Of a DNA stretch of 38,317 nucleotides, positions 2,352-29,170 are shown piece by piece. Location: positions 1-38,317 of the IMG/VR virus record IMGVR_UViG_3300009285_000031. One strand, given 5' to 3'. Each line of letters starts with the position of its first letter. Within the stretch, counting starts at the first letter, position 1. The DNA comes from a virus. The notes under the pieces are model-generated. The model was not told the origin of the DNA. It saw only the letters and a list, made by a program, of their open reading frames with translations, and made no database searches. The position numbers and the translations under genes were made by a program.

Positions 2352-3230
2352 ATGAAACCTGGAATTTATTACAATGTCCCGATGGAAGAGTACAAAAAAT
2401 GGCCTGGGGTGCACAAGTCGATGTTTCATTCAATTCTTCGGTCCGGGTTGCAATTGAAGCACGACACCGAAAACGAACCAGAGCCGACCGCCATCATGGT
2501 TTTCGGAAATCTGGTCGATTGCCTGCTGTTCGAACCGGCGCTTTTTTCGTCCCGGTACAAGCTCGCCCCAGATACATACCCGGCGATCGTAAAAAAGGTT
2601 CAGATCGACAAGCCGTGGAACTGGAACGCCAACTACTGCAAGGAGTGGCGCGACGAACAGCCGGAAGGCGTGGAGGTCGTAACCGGAGGAGAGCTTTCCA
2701 GGGCGTCGACAATCAAAAACAGGGTTTTAAACCACCCGGACGCCGGAAGGTGGCTTTTAAGGCCACAAAGACAGGTGAGCCTCTTCTGGGTCGATCCAGA
2801 GACCGATCTGCCCTGTAAGGGGCGGATAGACGCCTTGCCGGAGGATTTGAGCCGTATCGTGGACTTGAAAGTCACCGACGACCCGCTTCCGGGATCATTT
2901 TCCAGAATTGTGAACAATTTTTTGTATCACGCCGGAGGAGCGTTTTACCATGACGGTTTTTTCCTGGCGCAGGGAAAAGACCCGGGGCAGGGGCCGCAGA
3001 TACCGTTTTCTTTCATCGCTGCCGAAGCGGATGCCCCCTTCGACGTGGTGACATACGACCTCGGACCGGAGTCGTTCGACGCTGGACGCATCGCTTACCG
3101 CCATGCGCTGGCGCGATACAAAGAAATCACGGACTCGAACGAGTACTTGGGGTACTCGAATGTGACCGAAGAAATTGAGATCCCGCGGTGGGCGCTCAAC
3201 AGAATTCAGATGGAGGGAATAATCGAATGA
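2352..3230 (+). CDS. PD-(D/E)XK exonuclease, RecE-like (DUF3799-type).
   Basis: RBS GGAGGAG lies upstream. The motifs GNLVDCLLFEP and GRIDAL...IVDLKVT (D...D-x-K) fit the PD-(D/E)XK core, and the gene sits in a recombination module. Confidence 0.65.
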   Translation: MKPGIYYNVPMEEYKKWPGVHKSMFHSILRSGLQLKHDTENEPEPTAIMVFGNLVDCLLFEPALFSSRYKLAPDTYPAIVKKVQIDKPWNWNANYCKEWRDEQPEGVEVVTGGELSRASTIKNRVLNHPDAGRWLLRPQRQVSLFWVDPETDLPCKGRIDALPEDLSRIVDLKVTDDPLPGSFSRIVNNFLYHAGGAFYHDGFFLAQGKDPGQGPQIPFSFIAAEADAPFDVVTYDLGPESFDAGRIAYRHALARYKEITDSNEYLGYSNVTEEIEIPRWALNRIQMEGIIE

Positions 3231-3976
3231 ACACTCAAAACCTAGTAAAACCTGAAGTCGTGGAAAATGTTGAAAATCCTGTCGATCGCATCATGCTGGC
3301 CGTAGGGCTTGCAGGTCTCGGGGGTCCCGGGCAGATGAAAAAAGATTTGACCGAAAACCTTTCTATTCATCAGGCTGTAATCGATTTTGTAAACGAGCAT
3401 TTTGTCGAGGGGATAGATTACGGCAAGGGTGATCCACGGTCAGAAAAAAAATCATTGCTTAAGCCCGGAGCGGAAAAAATCTGTAAGGCGTTCAACACTC
3501 ACCCTCACTGGACTGTAGACAAAGATATGTGGGAGATCCTTGGACGCCCGACGAATACGGCGTTTTTTACCTGCCATATAATCCACAATGTAACCGGCGC
3601 TATCATTGGAGAGGGTCGTGGCGCATGCACAATCGGGGAGAAGTATAACGGGCAGCCGGCGCGCGATACGAACGGATCAATCAAGATTGCAAAAAAAAGG
3701 GCGATGGTTGACGCCGCGCTCGATGCCTTCATGTTGTCGGAGAGATTCACTCAGGATATGGACGAAATAAAATCTTTCATCGATGAAAAAAAGCTTCTTT
3801 ATGAAGCCGTCCAAAAAATGCGTTCAGGAATAAAATCGGATTTGACCGACAGTATGTTCATTCAAAAGGTGTGTTCTCAAACTATACACCAAAAATCAAT
3901 TTCAACCCGTAAGCAGCTGGAGATGGTGAACGAAGCCGTAAGCCTATACGATTTCGCAACCGGCGAAAAAAATTGA
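3227..3976 (+). CDS. Putative single-strand annealing or recombination protein.
   Basis: The start overlaps the exonuclease stop (ATGA) and the gene lies between the exonuclease and RusA. The segments LLKPGAEKICKAF and IKIAKKRAMVDAALDAF resemble annealing proteins. The call is mainly positional. Confidence 0.35.
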   Translation: MNTQNLVKPEVVENVENPVDRIMLAVGLAGLGGPGQMKKDLTENLSIHQAVIDFVNEHFVEGIDYGKGDPRSEKKSLLKPGAEKICKAFNTHPHWTVDKDMWEILGRPTNTAFFTCHIIHNVTGAIIGEGRGACTIGEKYNGQPARDTNGSIKIAKKRAMVDAALDAFMLSERFTQDMDEIKSFIDEKKLLYEAVQKMRSGIKSDLTDSMFIQKVCSQTIHQKSISTRKQLEMVNEAVSLYDFATGEKN

Positions 3977-4432
3977 ATGGATGTGAAAATTGGTGGGGCT
4001 GTAATGGACATTCTATTTACCGTTCCAGCGGTTCCGGTTGCGCAGCCAAGGCAACGGCACGCTATTGCAAAGGGAGGATTCATCACGAATTACACCCCGG
4101 CGGCGCATCCGGTAAACCAGTTTAAGGCGGCGGTAGGGTTCGCATCGAAACAGGTCTATTCCGGGCCTGTTTTGGATTGCGCCCTGTCGGTTGACATAGT
4201 GGCGGTTTTCCCAAGGCCGAAAAGCATGGTTAAGAAAAACAAGCCTATGAACCGGGAGTGGAAAAAGTCAAAGCCGGATATAGACAATATTGAGAAGAGC
4301 GTGTTCGACGCTCTGAATGGCGTACTATGGCGCGACGACAGTTTGGTATGCTCAGGAAGTACAATGAAATTTATCGCATCCGGAGAAGAACAGCCACATG
4401 TTGAAATAAGAGTTGTTTCGCTTGAAAAATAA
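3977..4432 (+). CDS. rusA: RusA-family Holliday junction resolvase.
   Basis: The motifs AQPRQRH, KPDIDNIEKSVFDALNGVLWRDDSLV and a size of about 140 aa are typical of RusA. The true start may be ATG 4004 (MDILF), which is preceded by GGTGGGG. Confidence 0.85.
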   Translation: MDVKIGGAVMDILFTVPAVPVAQPRQRHAIAKGGFITNYTPAAHPVNQFKAAVGFASKQVYSGPVLDCALSVDIVAVFPRPKSMVKKNKPMNREWKKSKPDIDNIEKSVFDALNGVLWRDDSLVCSGSTMKFIASGEEQPHVEIRVVSLEK

Positions 4433-4559
4433 TTGAAATAAATCTTGCACGATAGAATAATGTAGTGTATGTTACATAATATGAAAACAAAAACGTATTT
4501 CGCATAATGGGTGTTGGTTGACATATTGTTTTTCTTTTTGAGTTATAGGAGTTTGCGCT

Positions 4560-4796
4560 ATGTATTTAAACAGCGATGAGGTTCTTCAGGATGCTATCGA
4601 GCAAGGTTTAATAAAATTTGGTCGCAGAGGTTCAAATAAAGTTGCTGTGTGCTGTTCACAAAGTGTAACCGTAAGCATCGAATATGTTTTTGATCTATAT
4701 CGACGCGCAAACTCAGTCAATTTGGTAGAAAAACAAAACGATCAACCAACACAGGCAGTACGCAAGCCGGAGGAACCGGCCAGCGCACATGCCTAA
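4560..4796 (+). CDS. Hypothetical protein.
   Basis: 78-aa ORF with RBS TAGGAG. It follows a 127-bp AT-rich spacer that contains TTGACA. Confidence 0.45.
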   Translation: MYLNSDEVLQDAIEQGLIKFGRRGSNKVAVCCSQSVTVSIEYVFDLYRRANSVNLVEKQNDQPTQAVRKPEEPASAHA

Positions 4797-4847
4797 ACCG
4801 TTGGGCGAAATGCCCGTTTTGAAAACCATTTATTATAGGCGGCGACA

Positions 4848-5063
4848 ATGCAATCAATAGAACGTCGGTATATGAACGATCCTTTAATCCATAAATTGGT
4901 TGATTTGCTTACACAGCAAATTGACGAGCTTAAATTAACTCCGTCAGAGATAAGAGAGTGTGCCGTGTTGGCGGCAATCAACCATGAACGTAGAAGGCTG
5001 CCGCAGTATTTTGCGGAACAAAACGGGCACATCGCCCAACAGGCCGAGGTTGACATAACATAA
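4848..5063 (+). CDS. Hypothetical protein.
   Basis: 71-aa ORF on the same strand as its neighbours. Confidence 0.4.
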   Translation: MQSIERRYMNDPLIHKLVDLLTQQIDELKLTPSEIRECAVLAAINHERRRLPQYFAEQNGHIAQQAEVDIT

Positions 5064-5130
5064 TCACGTTACGGTCAACCATTGGCCGGGACGTTGTAGT
5101 CAATAACGCCCTCTGGAGATTGTAAGCGTA

Positions 5131-5844
5131 ATGAGAACATTTAAATTACTCGATCTTTTTTGCTGTGCAGGGGGCGCTTCGGCTGGCTATGCAAAAGCGG
5201 GGTTCGAATGCGTTGGGGTTGACATTAACAATCAACCGAGATATCCGTTTGAATTTCACCAGGCCGACGCCTTCGAGTATCTGCATCAATACGGGGAACA
5301 TTTTGACGTTATACATGCAAGTCCTCCATGTCAAAGATACAGTCAGCTTACTCCTAAAGAGTATCGCGGAAACCATCCTGATTATATCGACCTGATCAGA
5401 TCGGACTTACTGACACTTGGGAAACCTTACGTAATAGAGAATGTGCCAGGGGCAAGGGCATTGCTTAAAAGCCCGCTTATGCTTTGTGGAACAATGTTCG
5501 GGTTGCGTATCCGCAGGCATCGCTTTTTCGAAATAGTACCCAGGATAGCGCCCCCGCTTCTAGCTTGCGATCATACGTTTTATCCGGTCCTGATCTCTGG
5601 TACTCACAAGCGTAAAGGCGGGCGATTCGAGTATTCGGCACAATCGTGTCGTGATGCAAGTGGGCTACATTGGATGACTCGCAAGGAAATGGATGAGGCT
5701 ATACCGCCCGCCTTTACTTGCTTCATTGGAGAGCAGCTCGTTGCACAGTTGAATGTGGAGTCGGGCGTTACATGCCTACAACACAGTATAGCAGGCTCGC
5801 AAAGCCTCGGCCCAAATGCCGAAGCGGCACTTCTGCTATGCTAG
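5131..5844 (+). CDS. DNA (cytosine-5) methyltransferase, short form.
   Basis: Motif I LDLFCCAGGAS, motif IV ASPPCQRYS and motif VI YVIENVPG are all present. Confidence 0.85.
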   Translation: MRTFKLLDLFCCAGGASAGYAKAGFECVGVDINNQPRYPFEFHQADAFEYLHQYGEHFDVIHASPPCQRYSQLTPKEYRGNHPDYIDLIRSDLLTLGKPYVIENVPGARALLKSPLMLCGTMFGLRIRRHRFFEIVPRIAPPLLACDHTFYPVLISGTHKRKGGRFEYSAQSCRDASGLHWMTRKEMDEAIPPAFTCFIGEQLVAQLNVESGVTCLQHSIAGSQSLGPNAEAALLLC

Positions 5845-5847
5845 TCC

Positions 5848-5888
5848 TTGTACGCCATTTGTAAACCTTTGGAGATTGTAGGCGGCGC
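5848..5888 (+). repeat. Left arm of the long-range helix that brackets the radical SAM gene.
   Basis: TTGTACGC-ca-TTTGTAAACCTT-tggaga-TTGTAG-GCGGCGC is complementary to 6688-6728, segment by segment. Confidence 0.8.
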
Positions 5889-6749
5889 ATGAAAATCGCA
5901 AGAGTGTTCCCGGTACAAACAGCGGCCACGCCAGTGGATCAACTGGCATTTGTGGACTGCGAGCCTGGTCTATTCGCTCCAGAGGTTGACGAGGTACACG
6001 TAAGCGTGGCCTTCTCTTGGCACATGCAACGGGCCGAGCAGTTGGCCGAGGCCTGGTCGCACGTCGCGCCGGTGCAGATCGGAGGGCCTGCCTTCAACAA
6101 ACCCGGCGCAGCATTCGTGCCCGGTCGATATGTTCGTGCTGGATACACAATAACGTCGCGTGGCTGTCCGAATCGCTGCTGGTTTTGCTCTGTCTGGCAC
6201 CGTGAACCCGGCCTTTTGGAACTGCCGATTGTCGATGGTACGAACATTCTCGACGACAACCTGCTGGCATGTTCTGAGCGGCATGTACGCGATGTTTTTG
6301 CGATGCTATCGAGGCAGCGCGGGCGTGTGGAGTTTACGGGCGGACTTGAAGCTGCGAGGCTTCAGGCTTGGCACGTAGAGCTTCTCGCCAAGTTGCGGCC
6401 CGCTCAGATGTTTTTCGCGCTGGATACTCCCGACGATGAAGAGCCGCTCAGAAACGCCTCTCGTATGCTGCGGGAGGCCGGGTTCACGCGTCAACAGATG
6501 CGAGCATATTGCCTTATCGGGGGGCCACGCGACACGCTCGAACAAGCTGAGGTGCGGCTGCGCCTATGTGTCGAATTGGGCTTTTTCCCCATGGCGACGC
6601 TATGGCGCGACCAGAAAGGTATTACAGACCCGCAGTGGCGTGCGTTTCAACGTGAGTGGGCTCGGCCCTCAATCATCTATCGGAAATGCGCCGCTGAAAA
6701 CAGTGGAAGGTTTACAAACAGCGTACAACAGGCGCAGCTTGCAATTTGA
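5889..6749 (+). CDS. Radical SAM enzyme of unknown specificity.
   Basis: The CxxxCxxC cluster in TSRGCPNRCWFCSVW lies after an N-terminal domain of about 90 aa. The ORF is 286 aa. Confidence 0.8.
   Translation: MKIARVFPVQTAATPVDQLAFVDCEPGLFAPEVDEVHVSVAFSWHMQRAEQLAEAWSHVAPVQIGGPAFNKPGAAFVPGRYVRAGYTITSRGCPNRCWFCSVWHREPGLLELPIVDGTNILDDNLLACSERHVRDVFAMLSRQRGRVEFTGGLEAARLQAWHVELLAKLRPAQMFFALDTPDDEEPLRNASRMLREAGFTRQQMRAYCLIGGPRDTLEQAEVRLRLCVELGFFPMATLWRDQKGITDPQWRAFQREWARPSIIYRKCAAENSGRFTNSVQQAQLAI
6688..6728 (+). repeat. Right arm of the long-range helix that brackets the radical SAM gene. It lies inside the 3' end of the ORF.
   Basis: GCGCCGC-TGAAAA-cagtgg-AAGGTTTACAAA-ca-GCGTACAA is the reverse complement of the 7-, 12- and 8-bp segments of 5848-5888. 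Confidence 0.8.
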
Positions 6750-6792
6750 GTACAAACAGCAAGCGTGCTCCGGGACGTTATGCGGAAATAAT

Positions 6793-6929
6793 GGGGCTTT
6801 CCGATGGTTGTAGGCGGCGATGGGAACAGAGACCGGAGCATGGTGCTACCTCGGACCGGTGAGCATTACCGAGGGGATGTCGTCGCGTCGGCATCCAGCT
6901 TAGTCGCCGCTGAACACTATGGAGGCCCC
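6793..6929 (+). ncRNA. Candidate structured RNA (bracket-motif element A).
   Basis: The region has no ORF. It has an outer helix (6793-6801/6921-6929), TTGTAG (6808-6813), a 7-bp helix (GCGGCGA 6814-6820 / TCGCCGC 6904-6910) and TGAACA (6911-6916). There is an inner hairpin CCTCGG/CCGAGG (6849-6854/6869-6874). Confidence 0.5.
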
Positions 6930-7109
6930 TTTACGTTCACATAACACGCAAAGTAATCAATAGGCCCGGCCTGTGCCGATAGGGTTAACATGGCCGCACG
7001 GTAAAGCACTTAAGGTGGGCGTACTGTGACTCACGAGTGCCGGGCCTACAGCTTACATTTGCGAACACGTTAGGCGAAATAAAAAATATTTTTCAATTTT
7101 TGTTTCTTT

Positions 7110-7631
7110 ATGAAAATTATATTATTCATGGCAACATCTTTAAATGGAATGATCGCCGGCAAGGATGGCAACGAGGATTTTTTGTCGCACGCAAACTGGG
7201 AGTCCTTTGGCAAATTAGCTAAAGAGCATGGTTGTTTTATCATCGGCAGAAAAACATACGAGGCTGTTCAAAAATGGCCATATTATAATTATAACGATAT
7301 CGAAGCGAAACTAAAAGTAGTTGTTTCCACTGGCAAAGATTTAAAATTGGCACCACCATTTTTGGTTGTCAATTCGCCAAAGGGCGCTATTGAAAAAGCC
7401 GTTGCCATGAATTTTGAGAGCGCAATTCTTACGGGTGGAAGCACAATCAACAGTGCGTTTTTAAACGAAAATTTAATCGACGAAGTAGTGATAAATATTG
7501 AGCCTGCGATTGTTGGTTGTGGTATTCCTCTTTTTGCCGAGAAGGATATAAAAAAGCGTCTGACTTTTGTTGAGTCCGTAAGAATTGCCAATGATATATT
7601 GCAAGTTAAATATAAGGTGAACAAAATTTGA
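7110..7631 (+). CDS. Dihydrofolate reductase-family protein (RibD C-terminal domain type).
   Basis: The start MKIILFMATSLNGMIAGKDG, then IIGRKTYE, LTGGSTINSAFL..LIDEVVINIEPAIVGCGIPLF and a size of 173 aa are typical of RibD_C/DHFR-like reductases. The gene is visibly AT-rich compared with its flanks. Confidence 0.7.
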   Translation: MKIILFMATSLNGMIAGKDGNEDFLSHANWESFGKLAKEHGCFIIGRKTYEAVQKWPYYNYNDIEAKLKVVVSTGKDLKLAPPFLVVNSPKGAIEKAVAMNFESAILTGGSTINSAFLNENLIDEVVINIEPAIVGCGIPLFAEKDIKKRLTFVESVRIANDILQVKYKVNKI

Positions 7632-7676
7632 AAAATAGTTTGCCGAACTAAATTATAAACTTACGGGAGGCTTTTA

Positions 7677-8126
7677 ATGACACCAGCAGCATTATCCGCA
7701 TTGTTAAGTGGAGATATTGAGAACGCCATCATCGCATCAACACCGGGCGGCATCGAGGCGCAAGAGGCCGGTGGTCAACGTGACCTATGTACAAGTTCGA
7801 AGCTCCCTAAAATATTCAATGGTGGTAGCCGTTCCGAACTTGAGGTTATGGGAGTAGTGTTTGGTGAAGATTTCGATGACCTGTTCATAAATGTTACGTT
7901 GCCGCCCTCGTGGAAAATCGAGGCTACCGATCATAGCATGTGGTCTGATTTAGTTGACGATAAGGGGGAAGTCCGCGCAAATATCTTTTATAAGGCGGCA
8001 TTCTACGATCGGAGTGCGTTCATCAGCACCGTTCGGCAAAAGGATAATGTAGGGTCACCGGCCAACAATACACAACAAACGCTACACGCAAGCCCTGAAG
8101 GGACATTCGAAGCGCACGCCGGGTAG
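7677..8126 (+). CDS. Hypothetical protein.
   Basis: 149-aa ORF with RBS GGGAGG. Confidence 0.55.
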   Translation: MTPAALSALLSGDIENAIIASTPGGIEAQEAGGQRDLCTSSKLPKIFNGGSRSELEVMGVVFGEDFDDLFINVTLPPSWKIEATDHSMWSDLVDDKGEVRANIFYKAAFYDRSAFISTVRQKDNVGSPANNTQQTLHASPEGTFEAHAG

Positions 8127-8180
8127 CGTCGGACGTTGCAATTGTCAATTCACAATATTATAGTTTTTGGAGGCTGTTAT

Positions 8181-8381
8181 ATGTTTAAAATCGGCGATTT
8201 AGTCATACCAGTTACGAGGGAATGGGACAAGAAACGGTATACCGTGCTCGATGTTTTTGTGTCTGAAAAAAGCGGTGAGCGGTTAGTGCAAGTTGGTTTT
8301 ATCGGTAGTGTCGGCACTCCAATGGCTTCTTTAATAGATGAGCGGTTGTTTGAGGCCGCCCCCAAAAAAGAAGCTGAGTAA
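8181..8381 (+). CDS. Small hypothetical protein.
   Basis: ATG at 8181 is preceded by GGAGG. The protein begins MFKIGDLVIPV. Confidence 0.5.
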   Translation: MFKIGDLVIPVTREWDKKRYTVLDVFVSEKSGERLVQVGFIGSVGTPMASLIDERLFEAAPKKEAE

Positions 8382-8641
8382 TCTTGACAACAGCATACAA
8401 CAACCGTATGGCGTTCGTTTCACACATGCCGAAGCGGCACGTCGCCATACTTTTCCGTTTCCTGTAATAGCGGGCGAGATGAATCTGACGACGAAGGAGA
8501 CCGGCTAATGTGGAGCAAGGGTTCGAGACGTAATGGGAAATTTGTTTGTGGTTTTAACAGTTGCGCCTATCATAGTGCTGCTGTTAAGCGTAATAAGTGC
8601 TCACGGTATGATAAAGCCGAGGGCGACGATTGTTTTACCAC

Positions 8642-8676
8642 CAGCTACCGCCGACCTCTGAAATCGGCGGTAGCTG
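8642..8676. other. Perfect 13-bp stem with a 9-nt loop, not followed by a U-tract.
   Basis: CAGCTACCGCCGA-cctctgaaa-TCGGCGGTAGCTG, read directly from the sequence. Confidence 0.8.
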
Positions 8677-8698
8677 CGCATAGTCGAAGGCCGAAATA

Positions 8699-8790
8699 AT
8701 GTTACGGATTATAGCATAAATCGGAAGCACACACGACGGATTGTTGGAAAGTTGTATACACGCAATAGATAACGCCTGTTAAGGAGGGAG
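8699..8790 (+). pseudogene. Degenerate duplicate of the 5' end of the NeuB-like gene at 9411.
   Basis: 8706-8740 matches 9418-9452 at 33 of 35 positions, and weaker similarity continues downstream. It translates as MLRIIA*IGSTHDG, compared with MTRIIAEIGSTHDG in the intact gene. Confidence 0.65.
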
Positions 8791-8793
8791 TAA

Positions 8794-9054
8794 GTGCCAT
8801 ACAATGGCCGCTGTGGAAAAATAAGGACCGATGGGTGCGAATCAAACTGTGGAATGTGTTATGGTTCGACAAGATTTACACCAGCCAAAGAATTAAAAAG
8901 TGGGTATATGGGATATTCAATTGAGTGGTTGGAAAGGCACGCTGCCGGATGCGGTGTTAGCGTGGAGCAATATATTGCATACTGGGAAAGTTCTGGACTG
9001 GCAATGGATGTGCATTCCGAAGGGATGCCAAATCCGTATGGAATTGTTGATTGA
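8794..9054 (+). CDS. Hypothetical protein.
   Basis: GTG start preceded by AAGGAGGGAG. The ORF is 86 aa. Confidence 0.5.
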   Translation: MPYNGRCGKIRTDGCESNCGMCYGSTRFTPAKELKSGYMGYSIEWLERHAAGCGVSVEQYIAYWESSGLAMDVHSEGMPNPYGIVD

Positions 9055-9117: not shown

Positions 9118-9414
9118 TTGAGAGACAAATGTTTAGATTTTTTGCGTGAAGCAAGAGCTGTTATTAGCGAAGAGCAAAGCTCGGGTACTCATAGTAGTCC
9201 GCAGGATGTAACATTAACCGCGATTGATACGGCAATTTTGTGGCGTTGTCACGATTTGCATTTCCGGGAACCAGTCGTGAATGAGAGCCTCGAGCCTTGG
9301 AGCGTTCGCAATAATCAAGTTAACAAACACTACACGCATGGGCCGATGCGGCCACGTTACAAAGTAAATTCTGAAGTTGTCGGCAAGAATTCAAACAGAA
9401 GACGCAAAAAATGA
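9118..9414 (+). CDS. Hypothetical protein (start uncertain).
   Basis: 98-aa ORF whose stop overlaps the NeuB-like start (ATGA). The only start available is TTG. Confidence 0.35.
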   Translation: MRDKCLDFLREARAVISEEQSSGTHSSPQDVTLTAIDTAILWRCHDLHFREPVVNESLEPWSVRNNQVNKHYTHGPMRPRYKVNSEVVGKNSNRRRKK

Positions 9415-10046
9415 CAAGGATTATAGCAGAAATCGGAAGCACGCACGACGGAAAGCTGGCGAACTGTATGAAGGCAATAGGCTGCGCTGCGGAGGCCGGC
9501 GTGCAGGATGTTAAGTTCCAGTTGTTGGAGAAGGAGCACGCCAAAAACGGGAACGTCTCAATCTGTCCATCGTGGCTACCAGAGCTTGTGAAATACGGTA
9601 GATCTTCCGATGTAAATGTTTTCGCTTCGGCATGGTCGTTGCAGTCTATCGTTGCACTTGCAGACTCGGGAGCGACATCGATAAAGTTTGCGTATTCTGC
9701 AAGATTGGAGCAAGGATTAATTGATACGGCGCAGACTCATTTTAAAGAAGTAATCGTTTCTTCCGACGTTATGACCGGCCCGCTACCGGGAGTAATAAAC
9801 CTGTTCTGCATACCGCAGTATCCTGTTTATTTCAAAGTCGATTTCGCCGAAATATTCAACGCAGGATTCGACGGGTTTTCCGACCATACTCTCGGAATCA
9901 ACCAAACCATCGACGCCATTCGGGCAGGTGCGCGAATTATCGAGAAGCACGTCTGCCAATGTCCCGGCAGCAAGTGCCCGGATGCTCGATTCGCAATATC
10001 GTGGGATCAAGTAAAGCTACTTAAGCGTGAGGCGGAATCGATATGA
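9411..10046 (+). CDS. NeuB-family nonulosonic acid synthase-like protein. It is short, with the TIM-barrel part only.
   Basis: The motifs IIAEIGSTHDG, AGVQDVKFQ and FSDHTLGINQTIDAIRAGARIIEKH are present. At 211 aa there is no room for the usual C-terminal SAF domain. Confidence 0.65.
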   Translation: MTRIIAEIGSTHDGKLANCMKAIGCAAEAGVQDVKFQLLEKEHAKNGNVSICPSWLPELVKYGRSSDVNVFASAWSLQSIVALADSGATSIKFAYSARLEQGLIDTAQTHFKEVIVSSDVMTGPLPGVINLFCIPQYPVYFKVDFAEIFNAGFDGFSDHTLGINQTIDAIRAGARIIEKHVCQCPGSKCPDARFAISWDQVKLLKREAESI

Positions 10047-10660
10047 AAATCCTTGTCATAGGCAGCGAGGGGTCGACAGGTAGGAGGTATTGCAAAATAC
10101 TGGAAGAGATGGGGATCTCGGTATTGAAGTACGACATCGAAGACGTGAAAAATCCGCTTCCAGGATACGACAAGGTGATAATTGCGACTCCAACGGAAAC
10201 GCATCGGGAGTATTATTATATGTTACCTAAAACTGAATGGCAAAACATTCTTATCGAAAAACCTGCGTTTTCAAAAATTCCAGACCTTATCGTAGGATAT
10301 ATGTATTCTGGCATTGAGGCGAAGATGGTCTGCAATTGGGCTTTCGTTTTTCACGATGAAATTCTTCAGCCCGGCAAGCATCTTGTTTTTTACGATTGTT
10401 CAAACCACGGAAAAGAAGGGTACTGGTTTGACACTTGCCAGTTACACATCCTTTCAAACGGGAGAGGAACAATTGCGGAGTCGGCGGATGCGTTCAATGC
10501 CTCGATTGACGACAAAGAGGTAACAAGGACGATGATCGAGGCATCCTATGTCCGAATGATTGATTCGTGGATTTATCGCCCGGAAGAGTTGTGGAACGTT
10601 CAGGATTTAATACCGGAACTTTCTTACATTATCCGAAAGCAGGAAATTGAAAATGGATAA
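10043..10660 (+). CDS. Gfo/Idh/MocA-like NAD(P)-dependent oxidoreductase.
   Basis: There is an N-terminal Rossmann start (MKILVIGSEGSTGRRY), then ATPTETH and ILIEKP (the EKP motif). Confidence 0.5.
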   Translation: MKILVIGSEGSTGRRYCKILEEMGISVLKYDIEDVKNPLPGYDKVIIATPTETHREYYYMLPKTEWQNILIEKPAFSKIPDLIVGYMYSGIEAKMVCNWAFVFHDEILQPGKHLVFYDCSNHGKEGYWFDTCQLHILSNGRGTIAESADAFNASIDDKEVTRTMIEASYVRMIDSWIYRPEELWNVQDLIPELSYIIRKQEIENG

Positions 10661-11216
10661 AAGCAAGTTCGTCGTCGGAATTCAGGTGCGTTCTACAAGC
10701 ACGAGATTTCCGGGAAAGTGCAGCCGGGTTATTAATGGAGCGGAAATGTGGAGAAGTATCTTTTGTGAATGCCGGAGCACCGGGATAGACTGCAGAATGC
10801 TCGTTCCGAAAAATGATAAGCTCGTTTCGGAACTCGAAATGTTCGACAAAGAATCTATAATCACCGGCCCGGAAAACTCCCCTCTTCAGAGGTTTCAAAA
10901 CCTGCTCGCGGCAAGCACGGCAAAAAATATCATCCGTATCACCGCTGACTGCCCGTTAATTGTATCGTGGATGATTCTTGACATGGCCCACCAGTTCGAG
11001 CGAGATAATCGAACGTTCATGTACAACGAACTTGACGGGGTGGACGTGCAGATTGCCAGCAGGAATATTTTCTTTTATCCTCGATATTTAGATGAAGAGC
11101 ACGTTTTCAACATGGAGAAAATAAAAGAGCACAGACTGTATACAAAGTGGGAAATGCACCTATCTGTCGATACTAAAGAGCAGTACGAGCATATCAAATT
11201 TATTACGGGAGGATAA
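10653..11216 (+). CDS. Cytidylyltransferase-family protein (SpsF / acylneuraminate cytidylyltransferase-like).
   Basis: IQVRSTSTRFPGK and IIRITADCPLI match the CTP-transferase type 3 pattern. The ATG at 10653 was preferred over the TTG at 10647. Confidence 0.55.
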   Translation: MDKSKFVVGIQVRSTSTRFPGKCSRVINGAEMWRSIFCECRSTGIDCRMLVPKNDKLVSELEMFDKESIITGPENSPLQRFQNLLAASTAKNIIRITADCPLIVSWMILDMAHQFERDNRTFMYNELDGVDVQIASRNIFFYPRYLDEEHVFNMEKIKEHRLYTKWEMHLSVDTKEQYEHIKFITGG

Positions 11217-12356
11217 ATGATTTTTGGAGGAGCGTCAACATTTTCGAAAATGCACTGCAATTATCCGGAGAATATTCCGGAGTCGATTACCAGATCAAGT
11301 GGCCAATTTTTAGAGTTCGATGATGGAAAAGACGTTTTCGACACCGTTTCCGCCCTTGGAGCACGACTGGTCGATTGCGAACCGTCGGGCGGAATGGTGT
11401 CGCTTCCCCATAAAAGCGAAAAGATTCTTGCTCGTATGCTTTGTGGACTTTTCCCATTTGTCGAAATGGTGCGGTATGGCTGCAATGGTGCCGACGCAAC
11501 TGAGGGTGCTATCCGATACGCGCGGGCGCACACCGGTAAAAAATACGTAATCAGTTGCGGATACCACTCCTGCCAAAGCGCGTTTACGATGAATACCCCT
11601 CCATCGCTCGGGTGTATTCCCGGGTACATCGTCCAGGCAAACGATTTTAATGCGGTGATAAAGCTGCTGAATGGAGTTGACAGCGATCTAATCAGGCACC
11701 CCGAAGGCGTCGCCGCAGTAATCGTGGAACCGGTAACGCTCGATCTCGATGTCAGAGAGCAGTTGGAGGAAATACGCTCAATCACGAAAAAAAAAGGAAT
11801 CGTTCTTATTTTCGACGAGATCATTACCGGGTTTCGAGTTCCGACGAGATCGATTTCAACATGGTACGGCATTGCCCCGGACCTTATCACGCTCGGGAAA
11901 GCGCTCGGTGGCGGGTATCCGCTATCGATCATAGGCGGCCCGCGCGCCATCATGGACAAGCCGGTGTTCCACTCGTACACGTTCGCAGGGCTTCCGACTG
12001 CTCTTAACAACGCGATAAATATATGCAATATCAGAGATGTTGAATTCATCGATTTCTGGGACCGTTCAGATAAATTCATGTACGACTTCAACAATCTACC
12101 TTTTGAAATAAAGCTGAAGGGGTACGCAACCCGCGGAGTCTGGACCGGCCCCGAAATCGTGAAGTTTATCTTCTGGCAAGAGATGTTCAAAAAAGGGGTT
12201 CTGCTCGGACCGGCGTTCTTCCCGAGAATGGGGTGGACAAAAGAAGAGTATGGGCTGTTGTTGCAAAAGTCAGTAGAAACCCTCAAAGAAATACGAGACA
12301 AAGAAATTTGTCTCGTCGGGAGAATGCCTGCATCAATTTTCAAGAGGAACTCATGA
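11217..12356 (+). CDS. Class III PLP-dependent aminotransferase (related to glutamate-1-semialdehyde aminomutase).
   Basis: The motifs IFDEIITGFRV and LITLGKALGGGYPLS (PLP lysine) are present. The ORF is 379 aa. Confidence 0.8.
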   Translation: MIFGGASTFSKMHCNYPENIPESITRSSGQFLEFDDGKDVFDTVSALGARLVDCEPSGGMVSLPHKSEKILARMLCGLFPFVEMVRYGCNGADATEGAIRYARAHTGKKYVISCGYHSCQSAFTMNTPPSLGCIPGYIVQANDFNAVIKLLNGVDSDLIRHPEGVAAVIVEPVTLDLDVREQLEEIRSITKKKGIVLIFDEIITGFRVPTRSISTWYGIAPDLITLGKALGGGYPLSIIGGPRAIMDKPVFHSYTFAGLPTALNNAINICNIRDVEFIDFWDRSDKFMYDFNNLPFEIKLKGYATRGVWTGPEIVKFIFWQEMFKKGVLLGPAFFPRMGWTKEEYGLLLQKSVETLKEIRDKEICLVGRMPASIFKRNS

Positions 12357-12649
12357 TGGAGAAATGGATTGAAGCCAATAAAGCGTTGCCCCGATCAGGC
12401 GAGCGTGTTTTAGTTTACGGAATAAAACTACATAAGGTTACGATAGCGTGGTATAGTGAATTCAAAGAATGGCATTCGTTTGACGTTGGCCACAACGACA
12501 AAATATGGATGTTGAATGATTTTATAACGCATTGGAAAAAACTCCCTACACGTCCAAATGTAAAATGCCCTCACGATACCATTTTCGTATCTAACAATAA
12601 AGACGTTGTTTTATGTCAAGATTGCGGTAAGCATTTTAAAAAGAAGTAA
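12353..12649 (+). CDS. DUF551-domain protein with a C-terminal zinc-ribbon-like CxxC.
   Basis: The sequence WIEANKALPRSGERVLVYG...ITHWKKLPTRP fits the DUF551 pattern. The start overlaps the upstream stop. Confidence 0.6.
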   Translation: MMEKWIEANKALPRSGERVLVYGIKLHKVTIAWYSEFKEWHSFDVGHNDKIWMLNDFITHWKKLPTRPNVKCPHDTIFVSNNKDVVLCQDCGKHFKKK

Positions 12650-12708
12650 AAAAGATATGAGAATAAAATTAGTTTCTGTCGATTCGAAAAACTATTCAAG
12701 AGGAACAC

Positions 12709-13134
12709 ATGAAGCATAAAATCAAGCTCACCGATGTTTATTTGTTCAATTATTCAGACATGTTACTTCTGTATGGGTGTCTTTCGGAACGACCAAAAGT
12801 TGCAAACATCAGTCACGACGGAAAACTTCCTAAATTTGGAGATCATGTCGCCTTTGTTGAAAGTAAGCCGTATCGTGAATGGTATATAATCAAGGTCATG
12901 GTTGACGGAACCTGGATGAGCTGCGGAAATGTTTACATTACGAAAAACAATGAGATCGGAATTTTCATCCTGAAGTATTACCAGCGACGAGGTATCGCCC
13001 TGTCGGTAGTAAAAAGAATATCGACCGGGAAAGAGGTTTTTGCGAACATCGCGCCGAAGAATTATCCATCGCAGAAGCTTTTCAAGAAACTCGGGTTCGT
13101 TCACATTCAAAATACGTACAGGCGGTCAAAATGA
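12709..13134 (+). CDS. GNAT-family N-acetyltransferase (putative).
   Basis: The acetyl-CoA motif A-like sequence YQRRGIALSVV and the C-terminal KLFKKLGF are present. The ORF is 141 aa. Confidence 0.5.
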   Translation: MKHKIKLTDVYLFNYSDMLLLYGCLSERPKVANISHDGKLPKFGDHVAFVESKPYREWYIIKVMVDGTWMSCGNVYITKNNEIGIFILKYYQRRGIALSVVKRISTGKEVFANIAPKNYPSQKLFKKLGFVHIQNTYRRSK

Positions 13135-14153
13135 ACTATTTCATTTCAGGCGGAACCGGAACCATCGGGAAAGAGCTGGTTTCTCAACTGTTGTCAAAGG
13201 AAAATCTACTTCACCCAACGGAGAAAATCGTCATCTACTCACGCGACGAGGCGAAGCAGGCGGCAATGGCTGAAACATTCCCGCCGGGAGGAGCGTGTGG
13301 CATGCGGTACATCGTCGGCGATATATGCGACTACGACAGGCTCGTCTACGGAATGGAGGGCGCCCATGTCGTCATTCACGCTGCGGCAATGAAGAGAATC
13401 GACGCCTGCGAATACAACCCGATCGAGAGCCTGCGCGTGAACGTGACCGGATCTCTGAACGTCGCCAGAGCATGTATCGAGTGCGGAGTAAAGCAGGCTA
13501 TTTTTCTATCGACCGACAAGGCGTGTAACCCGTGTTCTGCTTATGGCGCACAGAAGGCGGCGATTGAGCGTCTATGGATCGGAATGAACAACATGACATC
13601 GAAGACGTGCTTCAACGTTGCGAGGTATGGGAATGTCTTCGGGTCTCGTGGATCGGTCATCGATAAGTGGAAAGCTGCCGCAGCCGCCGGCAAGGCGCTC
13701 ACAATAACTTCAACAGAAATGACAAGATTTTTTTGGAATATCGATGAGGCCGCATCGTTCATTATCAACCGCGTTGCAGATGCGGGCAGGAATTTTGATC
13801 GCGGCCTCATCTATATCCCTAAAATGAAGGCGCAGAAAATCGTCGATGTCGCTCTGTCGATCGGAAAAGAGATCAACGTCGTCGGGTTGCGATGCCCGGA
13901 AAAAATGAATGAAGATCTCATCAGTGAAGTAGAAGGCATGAGTGGATACGACCAGGGAGATTTTTACATCATTTACCCGATGCAACACGATTGGGCTGCG
14001 GATATCGGGACGAGAGGTAAGAATTGCGAAGACGGGTTCAGGTTATCTTCGTCAATCAACACAGGAGAATTTTGCGACACAAAACAATGCGATTCGCGGG
14101 ATTGCGGTGTTTGCAAAGTGGGTTATGGTAGAATTTGCGATAAACGTACTTAA
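13131..14153 (+). CDS. Nucleotide-sugar 4,6-dehydratase of the PseB/FlaA1/CapD family.
   Basis: The motifs ISGGTGTIGKEL, VIHAAAMKRIDACEYNP, STDKACNPCSAYGAQK and ARYGNVFGSRGSVI are present. Confidence 0.85.
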   Translation: MNYFISGGTGTIGKELVSQLLSKENLLHPTEKIVIYSRDEAKQAAMAETFPPGGACGMRYIVGDICDYDRLVYGMEGAHVVIHAAAMKRIDACEYNPIESLRVNVTGSLNVARACIECGVKQAIFLSTDKACNPCSAYGAQKAAIERLWIGMNNMTSKTCFNVARYGNVFGSRGSVIDKWKAAAAAGKALTITSTEMTRFFWNIDEAASFIINRVADAGRNFDRGLIYIPKMKAQKIVDVALSIGKEINVVGLRCPEKMNEDLISEVEGMSGYDQGDFYIIYPMQHDWAADIGTRGKNCEDGFRLSSSINTGEFCDTKQCDSRDCGVCKVGYGRICDKRT

Positions 14154-28114: not shown

Positions 28115-29170
28115 TCAAAACAAGAGATGAAGTTTCCCGCCGACCGACTTTTCAAGCATCGACGGCATCCGTTTATACATGCAGAATATCTGCAGCGCGG
28201 ATTTTAAATCCATCTGCAGAATCTGTTTGATATTTCCCTCGTGATAGGCTCCCATGATTCCGCCTTCGGTCGCATTGATCCACAACTGAGGATTGTTCCC
28301 GGTCCCGCCGCACGCCATGAAGTCAAACCAGTTTTTAAATCCGAAATACGACTGCCACGTCCATACGCGGTTCCCGAAAACGTCAATCCATGGGATAACA
28401 CCGGAGAATTTCTCGTTGTACCAGCAATCCCAGGCGTGGAATTTGTGGTCGTATGAGAAACAGAGATCCATCCCGACAAAGATGGGGACCGAGCATCCGA
28501 GAATCGCCCTTGAAAAGTACAGCGCCGCACCCATCACGTTCCCGCCGACGTTGAAGCCCGGGACTTTCGAGATATCAACAATTTTGAAAATCTCCTTCGC
28601 AAGCTCTTCAGATGCGCACGGGGTGGTATACCACAAAATCGGACCTCTCCACCTTTTAATGAAATCCGGATGAGTCCCGTGGTACGCGACAAGCGTCCGG
28701 TTCTCCGTCTTCTGCCAGTACCAGTCAGGTGTGTCGGCGTGCGCTCCGCCTTCCGACATCTCTTTGATGCAGATGTCTCCGGCGTCAAGGATAAGGTAAA
28801 AATCATCAGGTCGCATCAGGTTGCGATCTTCCATGAACGGGAAGTTGTGAACATTCGTCACCATCCTGACATCCTGGCGCCCGATCGATCTGTCTCCGTC
28901 GCCGATAAGATCTTTCCAGTTTCTCGAAAGCGACGGACCCGCCCCTGCGAGGATAACCGGACGACCGGCGCAAGCCTCGAAAACCTGATACGCGCTATCT
29001 TTAATGAAATCATGGGTTCCGGAGTTCACCTTCGTCTGTTCAATCCACTGCTTTTCCCACGTCTTTACCGTAACCCCGTCATTGCGAACCGCATTGTTCC
29101 AGGCAGCCTCTTTGCCGAGAGGTATGCCCTCAATGTACGGGCTGTATTGCAGAGTCATTTCAACTTGCAT
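28115..29170 (-). CDS. Maf/DUF115 (MptE-like) family protein, a putative nonulosonic-acid glycosyltransferase.
   Basis: The motifs GRPVILAGAGPSLSRN, MRPDDFYLILDAGD and VGGNVMGAALYFSRAILGCSVPIFVGMDLCFS match the conserved blocks I associate with the DUF115/Maf flagellin-glycosylation family. Confidence 0.55.
   Translation of the reverse strand: MQVEMTLQYSPYIEGIPLGKEAAWNNAVRNDGVTVKTWEKQWIEQTKVNSGTHDFIKDSAYQVFEACAGRPVILAGAGPSLSRNWKDLIGDGDRSIGRQDVRMVTNVHNFPFMEDRNLMRPDDFYLILDAGDICIKEMSEGGAHADTPDWYWQKTENRTLVAYHGTHPDFIKRWRGPILWYTTPCASEELAKEIFKIVDISKVPGFNVGGNVMGAALYFSRAILGCSVPIFVGMDLCFSYDHKFHAWDCWYNEKFSGVIPWIDVFGNRVWTWQSYFGFKNWFDFMACGGTGNNPQLWINATEGGIMGAYHEGNIKQILQMDLKSALQIFCMYKRMPSMLEKSVGGKLHLLF

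Follow-up and report, generated by a model that had tools for sequence, protein, structure and literature searches.

A nearly ORF-less element of an uncultivated groundwater phage as a possible empty cassette in an integron-like, integrase-less array

Results

Element A lies in a row of bracketed genes

We analysed element A, a segment in which no gene is called, located just downstream of a radical SAM gene in the virus record IMGVR_UViG_3300009285_000031. The window comprises positions 1–38,317 of this record, i.e. nearly all of a 38.6-kb groundwater metagenome contig from a tailed phage, and coordinates are window positions unless another contig is named. The plus strand carries, over 1–14.2 kb, a replication initiator, a DUF3799 nuclease and RusA, then accessory genes; the minus strand carries a P22-type portal, a terminase and a gp3-like small terminase. 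Element A belongs to an array of cassettes in the accessory region of this uncultivated phage. A DNA search against isolate phages returned nothing and protein searches found only distant relatives of the terminase and the radical SAM protein, so the phage has no cultured relative; a genome scan yielded only short contigs of metagenome-assembled genomes and homologues devoid of the bracket described below, and no host was identified.

Every gene from about 4513 to at least 7648 sits in the same type of bracket, that is, between two complementary arms, and further units of the array run on to about 8460 (Table 1). The longest inverted repeat in 4500–9000 is 5848–5890 with 6686–6728, around the radical SAM open reading frame (ORF), and further inverted repeats surround a 71-amino-acid (aa) ORF and the RibD_C gene. 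Within the array, the GC content per cassette spans 0.36 (C5) to 0.58 (radical SAM). No terminator-like site was found on the gene strand inside 4500–8500; the number of promoter-like sites equals the shuffled expectation, and the junctions are not each supplied with one. The array is not perfectly regular, since the unit after the RibD_C cassette (7649–8134, ORF 7677–8126) has neither a GTT start nor a preceding hairpin. An attC-like site, at about 8067–8135, does follow this unit.

Element A had originally been predicted, from the sequence alone, to be a small stable RNA excised or presented by the type of helix that also encloses the radical SAM gene. The predicted helices, motifs and 83-nt insert (6821–6903) were all read from the sequence where they had been placed, including the outer helix first noted, GGGGCTTTC (6793–6801) with GGAGGCCCC (6921–6929), which contains two G·U pairs. 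The full extent of the element is nevertheless 6777–6945, longer than 6793–6929, with an additional outer helix (GTTATGCGGA and TTCACATAAC) and an AAT/ACG mismatch. All parts of the bracket are present in element A, in register and with the correct spacing. The kinship with the bracket of the radical SAM gene (5847–5890 and 6686–6729) proved to be real, the inner arm of element A (TTGTAGGCGGCG .. CGCCGCTGAAC) being a paralogue of the radical SAM inner arm. The hairpin of the radical SAM cassette precedes element A, and its own 123-nt hairpin (element B, hereafter hairpin B) comes after it. The junction J2/3, which holds the Shine-Dalgarno sequence (SD) in other cassettes, has lost its GGAG in element A.

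Table 1. Positions of the cassette array, of the parts of element A and of neighbouring features in the window.
Feature	Position	Strand	Remarks
Best sigma-70-like promoter match	4433..4461	+	Just upstream of first cassette; consensus match only
Cassette C0 bracket	4513..4750	+	ORF 4560–4796
Cassette C1 bracket	4800..5040	+	ORF 4848–5063
Cassette C2 bracket	5093..5782	+	C5 DNA methyltransferase 5131–5844
Radical SAM (C3) bracket, 5' arm	5847..5890	+	P1 CTTGTACGC, CAT, P2, J2/3 GGAGATTGTAG, P3 GCGGCGCAT including start codon
Radical SAM (C3) bracket, 3' arm	6686..6729	+	Within C-terminal coding region
attC-like hairpin closing radical SAM cassette	6730..6776	+	Ends ..GGGAC before GTT of element A; contains radical SAM stop codon 6747–6749
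Element A P1, 5' strand GTTATGCGGA	6777..6786	+	Starts with conserved GTT after junction ..GGGAC↓GTT; pairs with 6936–6945 in minimum-energy fold
Element A conserved mismatch, 5' side AAT	6787..6789	+	Opposite ACG 6933–6935
Element A P2, 5' strand AATGGGGCTTTCC	6790..6802	+	Includes outer helix 6793–6801
Element A J2/3 GATGGTTGTAG	6803..6813	+	Family junction ..ATTRTAGG; GGAG lost; TTGTAG at 6808–6813
Element A P3, 5' strand GCGGCGA	6814..6820	+	Ends in ATG at 6820, placed like radical SAM start codon
Element A insert, 83 nt, cargo position	6821..6903	+	Micro-ORFs only; no gene called
Element A P3, 3' strand TCGCCGC	6904..6910	+	Pairs with 6814–6820
Element A J3/2 TGAACACTA, running on into TGGAGG	6911..6919	+	Fits family 3'-arm junction WGAA..GGAxG; TGAACA at 6911–6916
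Element A P2, 3' strand TGGAGGCCCCTTT	6920..6932	+	Pairs with 6790–6802
Element A ACG mismatch and P1 3' strand TTCACATAAC	6933..6945	+	Final AAC conserved
Hairpin B (element B), 123 nt, closing element A cassette	6946..7068	+	Helix, AAT/ACA, helix; ends ..GAACAC before GTT of RibD_C cassette
Cassette C5 bracket	7069..7648	+	RibD_C/DHFR-like gene 7110–7631; GC 0.36
The arrow marks a cassette junction.

The paired cassette ends covary

The bracket anatomy is common to the window and its relatives, L-numbered viral contigs that were obtained via the radical SAM protein. A 5' arm of ~45 nt pairs with a 3' arm of ~45 nt, and the junction reads ..RAAC(C)G↓TT. The first helix, P1, is made of GTT+N6 and N6'+AAC; a mismatch position follows, and then a helix P2 of 8–12 bp. 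The consensus at the mismatch position is (A/C)AT on the 5' arm against ACA or ACG on the 3' arm, which amounts to an invariant A·C on the sense strand: the apparent AAT/ACA loop is this A·C beside a T-A pair, and the bottom strand has a G·T wobble in its place. P2 is followed by a large purine-rich internal loop, with ..ATTRTAGG and the SD on its 5' side and WGAA..AAGGWRG, a near direct repeat, on its 3' side. In all cassettes the two sides of the loop are purine-rich, SD-like near direct repeats, for example 5871–5881 and 6695–6706 in the window or TGAAATTATAGG and AGAAAATCAAGG in L019. A GC-rich helix, P3, then forms at the start codon or beside it. Each bracket is succeeded by an attC-like hairpin, and the next unit begins at AAC↓GTT.

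We aligned 25 distinct brackets from the window and its relatives without gaps (alignment A1). In P1 and P2 together, 88.7% of the cells pair, against 57.3% after shuffling. Double-sided changes occur in 158 cells, against 51, and the score for covariation comes to 0.763, against 0.18. Pairing and covariation were each reached by none of 500 shuffles, and only 33–39% of cells pair when the partners are slid by 1–3 columns. Considered alone, P1 pairs in 94.7% of cells and shows changes on both sides in five of its nine pairs, and AAC and GTT are invariant or nearly so across the 25 brackets. Moreover, a strict-register scan (477 kb) found 30 brackets on the gene strand and a single one on the opposite strand, and only 8 chance-like matches were obtained in a control of 714 kb of unrelated viral loci. 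A search with the junction pattern led to 82 loci, none with brackets, which served as a negative control.

The arms account for the fold of element A

Given that the cargo of element A is only 83 nt long and its arms are therefore adjacent, they fold into one long rod. The segment 6785–6935 folds at -63.6 kcal/mol (z = -3.1; 1 of 200 shuffles as good) and the full element, 6777–6945, at -72.3 kcal/mol (z = -3.57; 0 of 200), while the whole 360-nt spacer (6750–7109) forms two long stems with z = -3.98. A very stable rod would thus be predicted to form in any transcript crossing element A. The two inner hairpins of the original prediction, CCTCGG/CCGAGG and GGATG..CATCC, both appear in the minimum-energy fold of 6785–6935. 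The fold of the element exceeds chance; the inner hairpins do not, for the 83-nt insert alone is structured at chance level (z = -0.30; 60 of 200 shuffles fold as well), which locates the significance of the fold in the arms.

In the related loci, element A has no homologue along its full length with which it could covary. The 360-nt spacer containing it has no blastn match in ~100 related loci, an exact-pattern scan of the viral collection for its 5' arm gave 0 matches, and element A is single-copy in the window. A bracket pattern with a 70–100 nt insert had two matches, both irrelevant and in GC-rich coding DNA, and a scan with the pattern of hairpin B had none. L193, a contig from a second sample, has an identical RibD_C gene, preceded by hairpin B and by element A's 3' arm. 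Outside its first 115 nt, L193 matches the window over 1750 nt apart from one base. Positions 1–115 (window 6915–7029), which correspond to the element's 3' arm together with half of hairpin B, contain 15 of the 16 differences, mostly transversions. This divergent end either arose in the assembly or marks a breakpoint of recombination at the apex of the hairpin, and we set its differences aside as evidence on compensation, a contig end being unreliable.

Inter-cassette hairpins and a bias towards the bottom strand

Between the AAC of one unit and the GTT of the next lie hairpins of 35–154 nt (47, 49, 52, 64 and 123 nt in the window), built as helix, AAT/ACA (or AAAAT/ACTTC), helix. The cassette ORFs run on across the 3' arm and the greater part of the hairpin, two frames or more being used, and their stops fall 4–30 nt before the next GTT. 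After a basal helix of 6–7 bp, a conserved bulge of a single base, at times 3 nt, was observed, always on the arm adjoining the downstream GTT (e.g., window 6730–6776, L001 4851–4924 and L021 546–679). A type-1 hairpin pattern had three matches, namely two by chance in coding DNA and one in an already known related contig.

For the strand preference, each arm was aligned to the reverse complement of its partner and isolated transition mismatches were tallied. Sense-strand A·C outnumbers G·T by 20:1 in the hairpins and 9:3 in the brackets (29:4 in total), and still by 8:1 in the hairpins once the conserved motif is left out. Moreover, the bottom strand folds better in 14 of 20 hairpins. The non-Watson-Crick cells of the brackets comprise 11 G·T and 17 A·C, so that G·U is not enriched. 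Selection on a sense transcript is disfavoured, because the isolated mismatches are A·C and not G·U.

Cassette mosaicism at AAC↓GTT

The radical SAM cassette recurs in relatives at 75–92% nucleotide identity. The shared stretch extends only from window position 5848 to about 6744–6787; the flanks are unrelated and no other protein of the window was found nearby. The left breakpoint is ..G↓TTGTACGCC in six contigs, and the right one is either AAC↓AG or, past the hairpin, AAC(C)G↓TT, these positions being resolved to the junction and not to a single phosphodiester bond. L019 and L027 have the same cassette and hairpin, then differing cassettes after GTT, and the same hairpin type comes after the radical SAM homologues in L021 and L023. 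In L002, one cassette with its hairpin is exactly duplicated in tandem (3964–4292 and 4293–4621; 329-nt period), and both end points of the duplication fall in AAC↓GTT. Radical SAM homologues of at most 60% identity, located in ordinary compact phage operons, have no bracket, which indicates that the arms are part of the cassette system rather than of the gene. No viral contig was recovered when the proteins of the C5 methyltransferase and RibD_C cassettes guided the search.

One of the relatives holds a natural half-bracket. At about 1150–1245 of L020, the radical SAM cassette is devoid of the 5' strands of P1 and P2, the preceding ..CACAACAGG joins J2/3 directly, and the full 3' arm is retained.

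Such shuffling might be a side effect of homologous recombination of the phage Erf/exonuclease type acting on short shared sequence, with expression motifs at the boundaries, as in the PeSL elements of T4-type phages. The arrays do adjoin recombination modules (the DUF3799 exonuclease and RusA in the window, ERF in L003, a Cas4-like nuclease in L004), the breakpoints are spread over several conserved blocks rather than sharing one point (AAC↓AG, G↓TT, and inside J2/3 in L020 and L022), and PeSL offer a precedent in which mini-circles arise with no recombinase dedicated to them (Arbiol et al. 2010, PMC2839356). We nevertheless consider this explanation unlikely: the junctions have neither a promoter each nor terminator-like stem-loops, the sequence shared at a junction amounts to only ~6 nt, and both the covarying pairing of the cassette ends and the strand-specific bias of the mismatches are left unexplained.

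A role of the bracket in sense RNA

The main rival to a DNA-level function is a role of the bracket in the sense RNA, for translational coupling or RNase III processing: within a polycistronic transcript, every cistron would have its 5' leader paired to its own 3' end. In one variant, P3 hides the start codon until it is opened by ribosomes that terminate just upstream or read the 3' arm; in another, a two-turn RNase III substrate frees end-paired, stabilised mRNAs. Element A would then be a cistron-less bracket, i.e. a processing, stabiliser or decoy hairpin. Analogues are the tac-fbi pairing of hok mRNA, the long-range coupling of coat and replicase in MS2 and the processing stems of rRNA, and attC structures are known to lower the translation of downstream integron cassettes.

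Several features fit such a role. P3 is always at or beside the start codon and the SD is within the internal loop; ORFs stop 4–30 nt before the next 5' arm; P1, mismatch and P2 together span ~21–24 bp; and the array is seemingly co-transcribed, with one upstream promoter-like site and no internal terminator-like site. Element A itself is 14 kcal/mol better as sense RNA. Compensatory change is also strong, as expected of a long-range mRNA helix, yet G·U is not enriched in the counts given above, and the isolated mismatches, sense-strand A·C by 29:4, favour the other strand. The sole invariant non-Watson-Crick position is again a sense-strand A·C, and the hairpins are more stable as the antisense strand. 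Moreover, the 3' arms and hairpins are translated, so that ribosomes would keep melting them, and radical SAM homologues of other phages work bracket-free. Pairing in the sense RNA does not alone account for breakpoints and a duplication exactly at AAC↓GTT. Overall, we regard it as doubtful.

The cargo position of element A

As first noted, 6750–7109 holds no ORF of at least 60 aa, and no gene had been called in it in the source assembly. What the cargo position does contain is micro-ORFs, one of 27 aa (6820–6903) and one of 46 aa (6804–6944), and element A could be an ordinary small cassette encoding either micro-protein. Small-protein cassettes of 160–175 nt are common in the relatives, the ATG at 6820 is placed exactly as the radical SAM ATG relative to TTGTAGGCGGCG, and the 46-aa ORF crosses the 3' arm like other cassette ORFs. 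It should be noted that the relatives' cassettes of this size all have an SD and an ORF of 57–99 aa. In element A, CCGATGG stands in place of the GGAG of the radical SAM leader and neither ATG has a good SD; the 27-aa ORF ends short of the 3' arm, unlike every other cassette ORF; no gene was called and no homologous sequence was found in related loci. An ordinary micro-protein cassette is thus quite improbable.

The proposal of a small stable RNA, ~80–140 nt long and excised or presented by the helix of the bracket, found no support. The sense strand does fold very stably, and ORF-less integron cassettes yielding small RNAs have been reported. No Rfam family, however, matches any part of element A at E values up to 10, the structure of the insert is at chance level, and no promoter-like or terminator-like site flanks the element, which is thus without a promoter or terminator of its own. 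A whole-element homologue was not found in the loci searched, and the arms common to every cassette fully account for the fold. We consider a small RNA gene very improbable and advise against annotating element A as an RNA gene unless a transcript supports it.

Across the whole window, Rfam gave 0 matches at the gathering score, and nothing overlapped 6750–7109 when 4400–7800 was scanned at E values as high as 10; with ARAGORN, neither a tRNA nor a tmRNA was detected in the window. A hit to Ocean-VII RNA at 5577–5606 on the minus strand, in the methyltransferase gene, was discarded as probably due to chance (19.7 bits against a gathering score of 53.5; E = 0.015).

Discussion

Element A as an empty cassette

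Brackets and hairpins form a covarying architecture, cassettes are mosaic at AAC↓GTT, and the mismatches are biased towards the bottom strand; these features are demonstrated by the comparison of the window with its relatives. On balance, we slightly favour the view that element A (6777–6945) represents the paired ends of an ORF-less or micro-ORF cassette in an integron-like array devoid of an integrase, and that these ends are recombination signals at the DNA level. Brackets and hairpins would act as structure-specific signals, read on folded single-stranded DNA with a preference for the bottom strand, as in integron attC, and would allow the excision, insertion and duplication of cassettes at AAC↓GTT. 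In this view, element A is a cassette whose cargo was lost or never present, and its stable RNA fold a by-product.

A number of observations weigh against this interpretation. Element A and hairpin B run contrary to the strand preference of the family, both being more stable as the sense strand (-72.3 against -57.9 kcal/mol, ~14 better, and -49.0 against -44.2 kcal/mol, respectively). No circular or excised form of a cassette was seen; the evidence for mobility is wholly comparative, and homologous recombination at short conserved motifs could give the same breakpoints. Of the extended core consensus of attC, RYYYAAC/GTTRRRY, the GTTRRRY part fits only 5 of the 25 cassette starts in alignment A1, the local consensus being GTTG(K)NNGC, although the published consensus is loose; moreover, the spacer is very asymmetric (1 nt against 4–5 nt). 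Canonical attC sites have their extrahelical bases on the arm that faces the bottom-strand AAC, and the central spacer between their R and L boxes is unpaired (Nivina et al. 2016, PMC5027507). Here, the conserved bulge lies on the bottom-strand arm that carries AAC, i.e. on the opposite side. The pairing of the two ends of a cassette over ~45 nt, where P3 always coincides with the start codon and the loop contains the SD, looks like translational control and is not known from integrons. Finally, no recombinase is linked to the array, and no match to integrase families was obtained among the window ORFs scanned, small ORFs being only partly covered.

The search for an integron integrase near related arrays came upon a generic tyrosine recombinase only, with no tRNA gene beside it, and this candidate was rejected. 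It is encoded at 1944–3131 of L025, 1.5 kb upstream of a related array, is the only tyrosine recombinase near one, and scores 31 bits against a cut-off of 220 in the XerA/integron-integrase model. The adjoining stretch, at about 3150–3215, looks like a tRNA 3' fragment, for which ARAGORN makes no call. The two are probably a lysogeny integrase and its attachment site.

The array might also be an undescribed phage cassette system using structure-specific recombination of single-stranded DNA distinct from IntI/attC, with element A as an empty cassette, a view that we put forward tentatively. Pairing of the bracket would loop out the gene and bring the two flanking sites together, and bracket and hairpin would share one module of helix, conserved bottom-strand G·T wobble and helix. 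This view cites the bulge geometry opposite to canonical attC and the lack of an integron integrase.

If the favoured interpretation is true, an environmental phage lineage stores accessory genes as integron-like cassettes without an integron integrase, with a cargo that covers DNA methyltransferases, a radical SAM enzyme and a DHFR-like reductase. The sites would have the bottom-strand signature of attC but a differing geometry, and long complementary arms not known from integrons. This bears on the origin of cassettes and attC sites, and on how phages shuffle accessory and anti-defence genes. The signature GTT-N6-AAT-helix ... helix-ACA-N6-AAC is searchable, and the fold of element A is what any empty cassette of this type would display.

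Beyond the array, the stretches 9411–14153 on the plus strand and 28115–29170 on the minus strand hold two further items of note. One is a sugar pathway of the nonulosonic-acid type, comprising NeuB, a CTP_transf_3 cytidylyltransferase, an aminotransferase, a GNAT/FR47 acetyltransferase and a nucleotide-sugar epimerase. The other is a protein with an MptE-like/DUF115 domain, the domain of Maf-type nonulosonic-acid transferases, which is encoded within the virion module. These genes suggest that glycosylation of virion proteins is possible.

Comparison with known systems

PeSL (promoter-early stem-loop elements), which consist of a strong sigma-70 early promoter and a terminator stem-loop between genes, resemble the array in that structured motifs recur on either side of accessory genes of obscure function (PMC2839356; Comeau et al. 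2014, PMC4122927). Where relatives differ by indels or replacements, these stop within the motifs, and no dedicated recombinase is known for them. Unlike PeSL, the array junctions are not each supplied with a promoter and a terminator, and the cassette ends pair mutually and covary.

The tac-fbi pairing of hok/sok and similar 5'-3' pairings hide a start codon, act at the RNA level and tolerate G·U. As in this type, a helix between leader and 3' end encloses the ORF and covers the initiation region, and P1-mismatch-P2 has about the length of an RNase III substrate, as in the processing stems of rRNA and T7. In contrast to both, the mismatches of the array point to the bottom strand and its arms move with the gene between genomes. 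The array also recalls the SAS/ESAS of Cluster K mycobacteriophages in having a conserved short motif (ATTRTAGG followed by a GC-rich stretch, e.g., TTGTAGGCGGCG) that precedes the start codons of some of the genes by a constant spacing; SAS/ESAS are without a 3' partner and are not tied to cassette boundaries.

With its ~170 bp of non-coding DNA and long terminal inverted repeats, element A is reminiscent of MITEs (miniature inverted-repeat transposable elements) or REPs (repetitive extragenic palindromes), but its arms are those of the neighbouring gene-bearing cassettes. This identity was rejected, as the element is single-copy, absent from ~100 related loci and without target-site duplication (the flanks CGGGAC and ACGCA differ). 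Other identities were likewise rejected: a retron non-coding RNA, because there is no reverse transcriptase; an intrinsic terminator, because there is no T-run; and a bulge-helix-bulge splicing motif, because AAT and ACA face each other and do not form staggered bulges.

The differences from integrons, beyond those weighed above, concern the ends of the cassettes. Their complementarity extends over ~45 nt (P1, P2 and P3) and not ~7 bp, a single A·C mismatch module is shared by brackets and hairpins, and the hairpins, which reach ~150 nt, are translated to form the C-terminal portion of the preceding ORF. The upper bound for the length of attC sites is ~141 bp. Lengths of 57–70 bp and 133 bp have been reported (PMC5027507). 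The corresponding site spans ~61–137 bp in the window, and a few sites in relatives lie beyond the canonical range.

The likeness to integrons is found at several levels. Mostly single-gene, promoterless units are arranged in a co-directional row behind one promoter-like site, an imperfect hairpin ends each unit, and AAC ... GTT are the only invariant bounding bases. The cassette boundary is G↓TT, homology among relatives beginning at G↓TTG and ending at AAC(C)G↓TT, and each cassette opens with GTT N6, which can pair with N6' AAC, the box just ahead of the hairpin that belongs to it. The array has DNA methyltransferase cargo, ORF-less cassettes and duplication or shuffling at the junction. Phages are reported to contain clusters of attC sites devoid of an integrase (CALINs), often with methyltransferases (Qi et al. 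2023, PMC9892861). An integron integrase (IntI) next to the array is a requirement for a complete integron but not for a CALIN. Moreover, in attC sites the bottom strand, which has 1.24 G:T mispairs against 0.39 on the top strand, is the more stable and the recombined one (PMC5027507). With element A and hairpin B as exceptions, the sites of the array resemble attC in this respect too, the bottom strand being the more stable in 14 of 20 hairpins and carrying the G:T mispairs.

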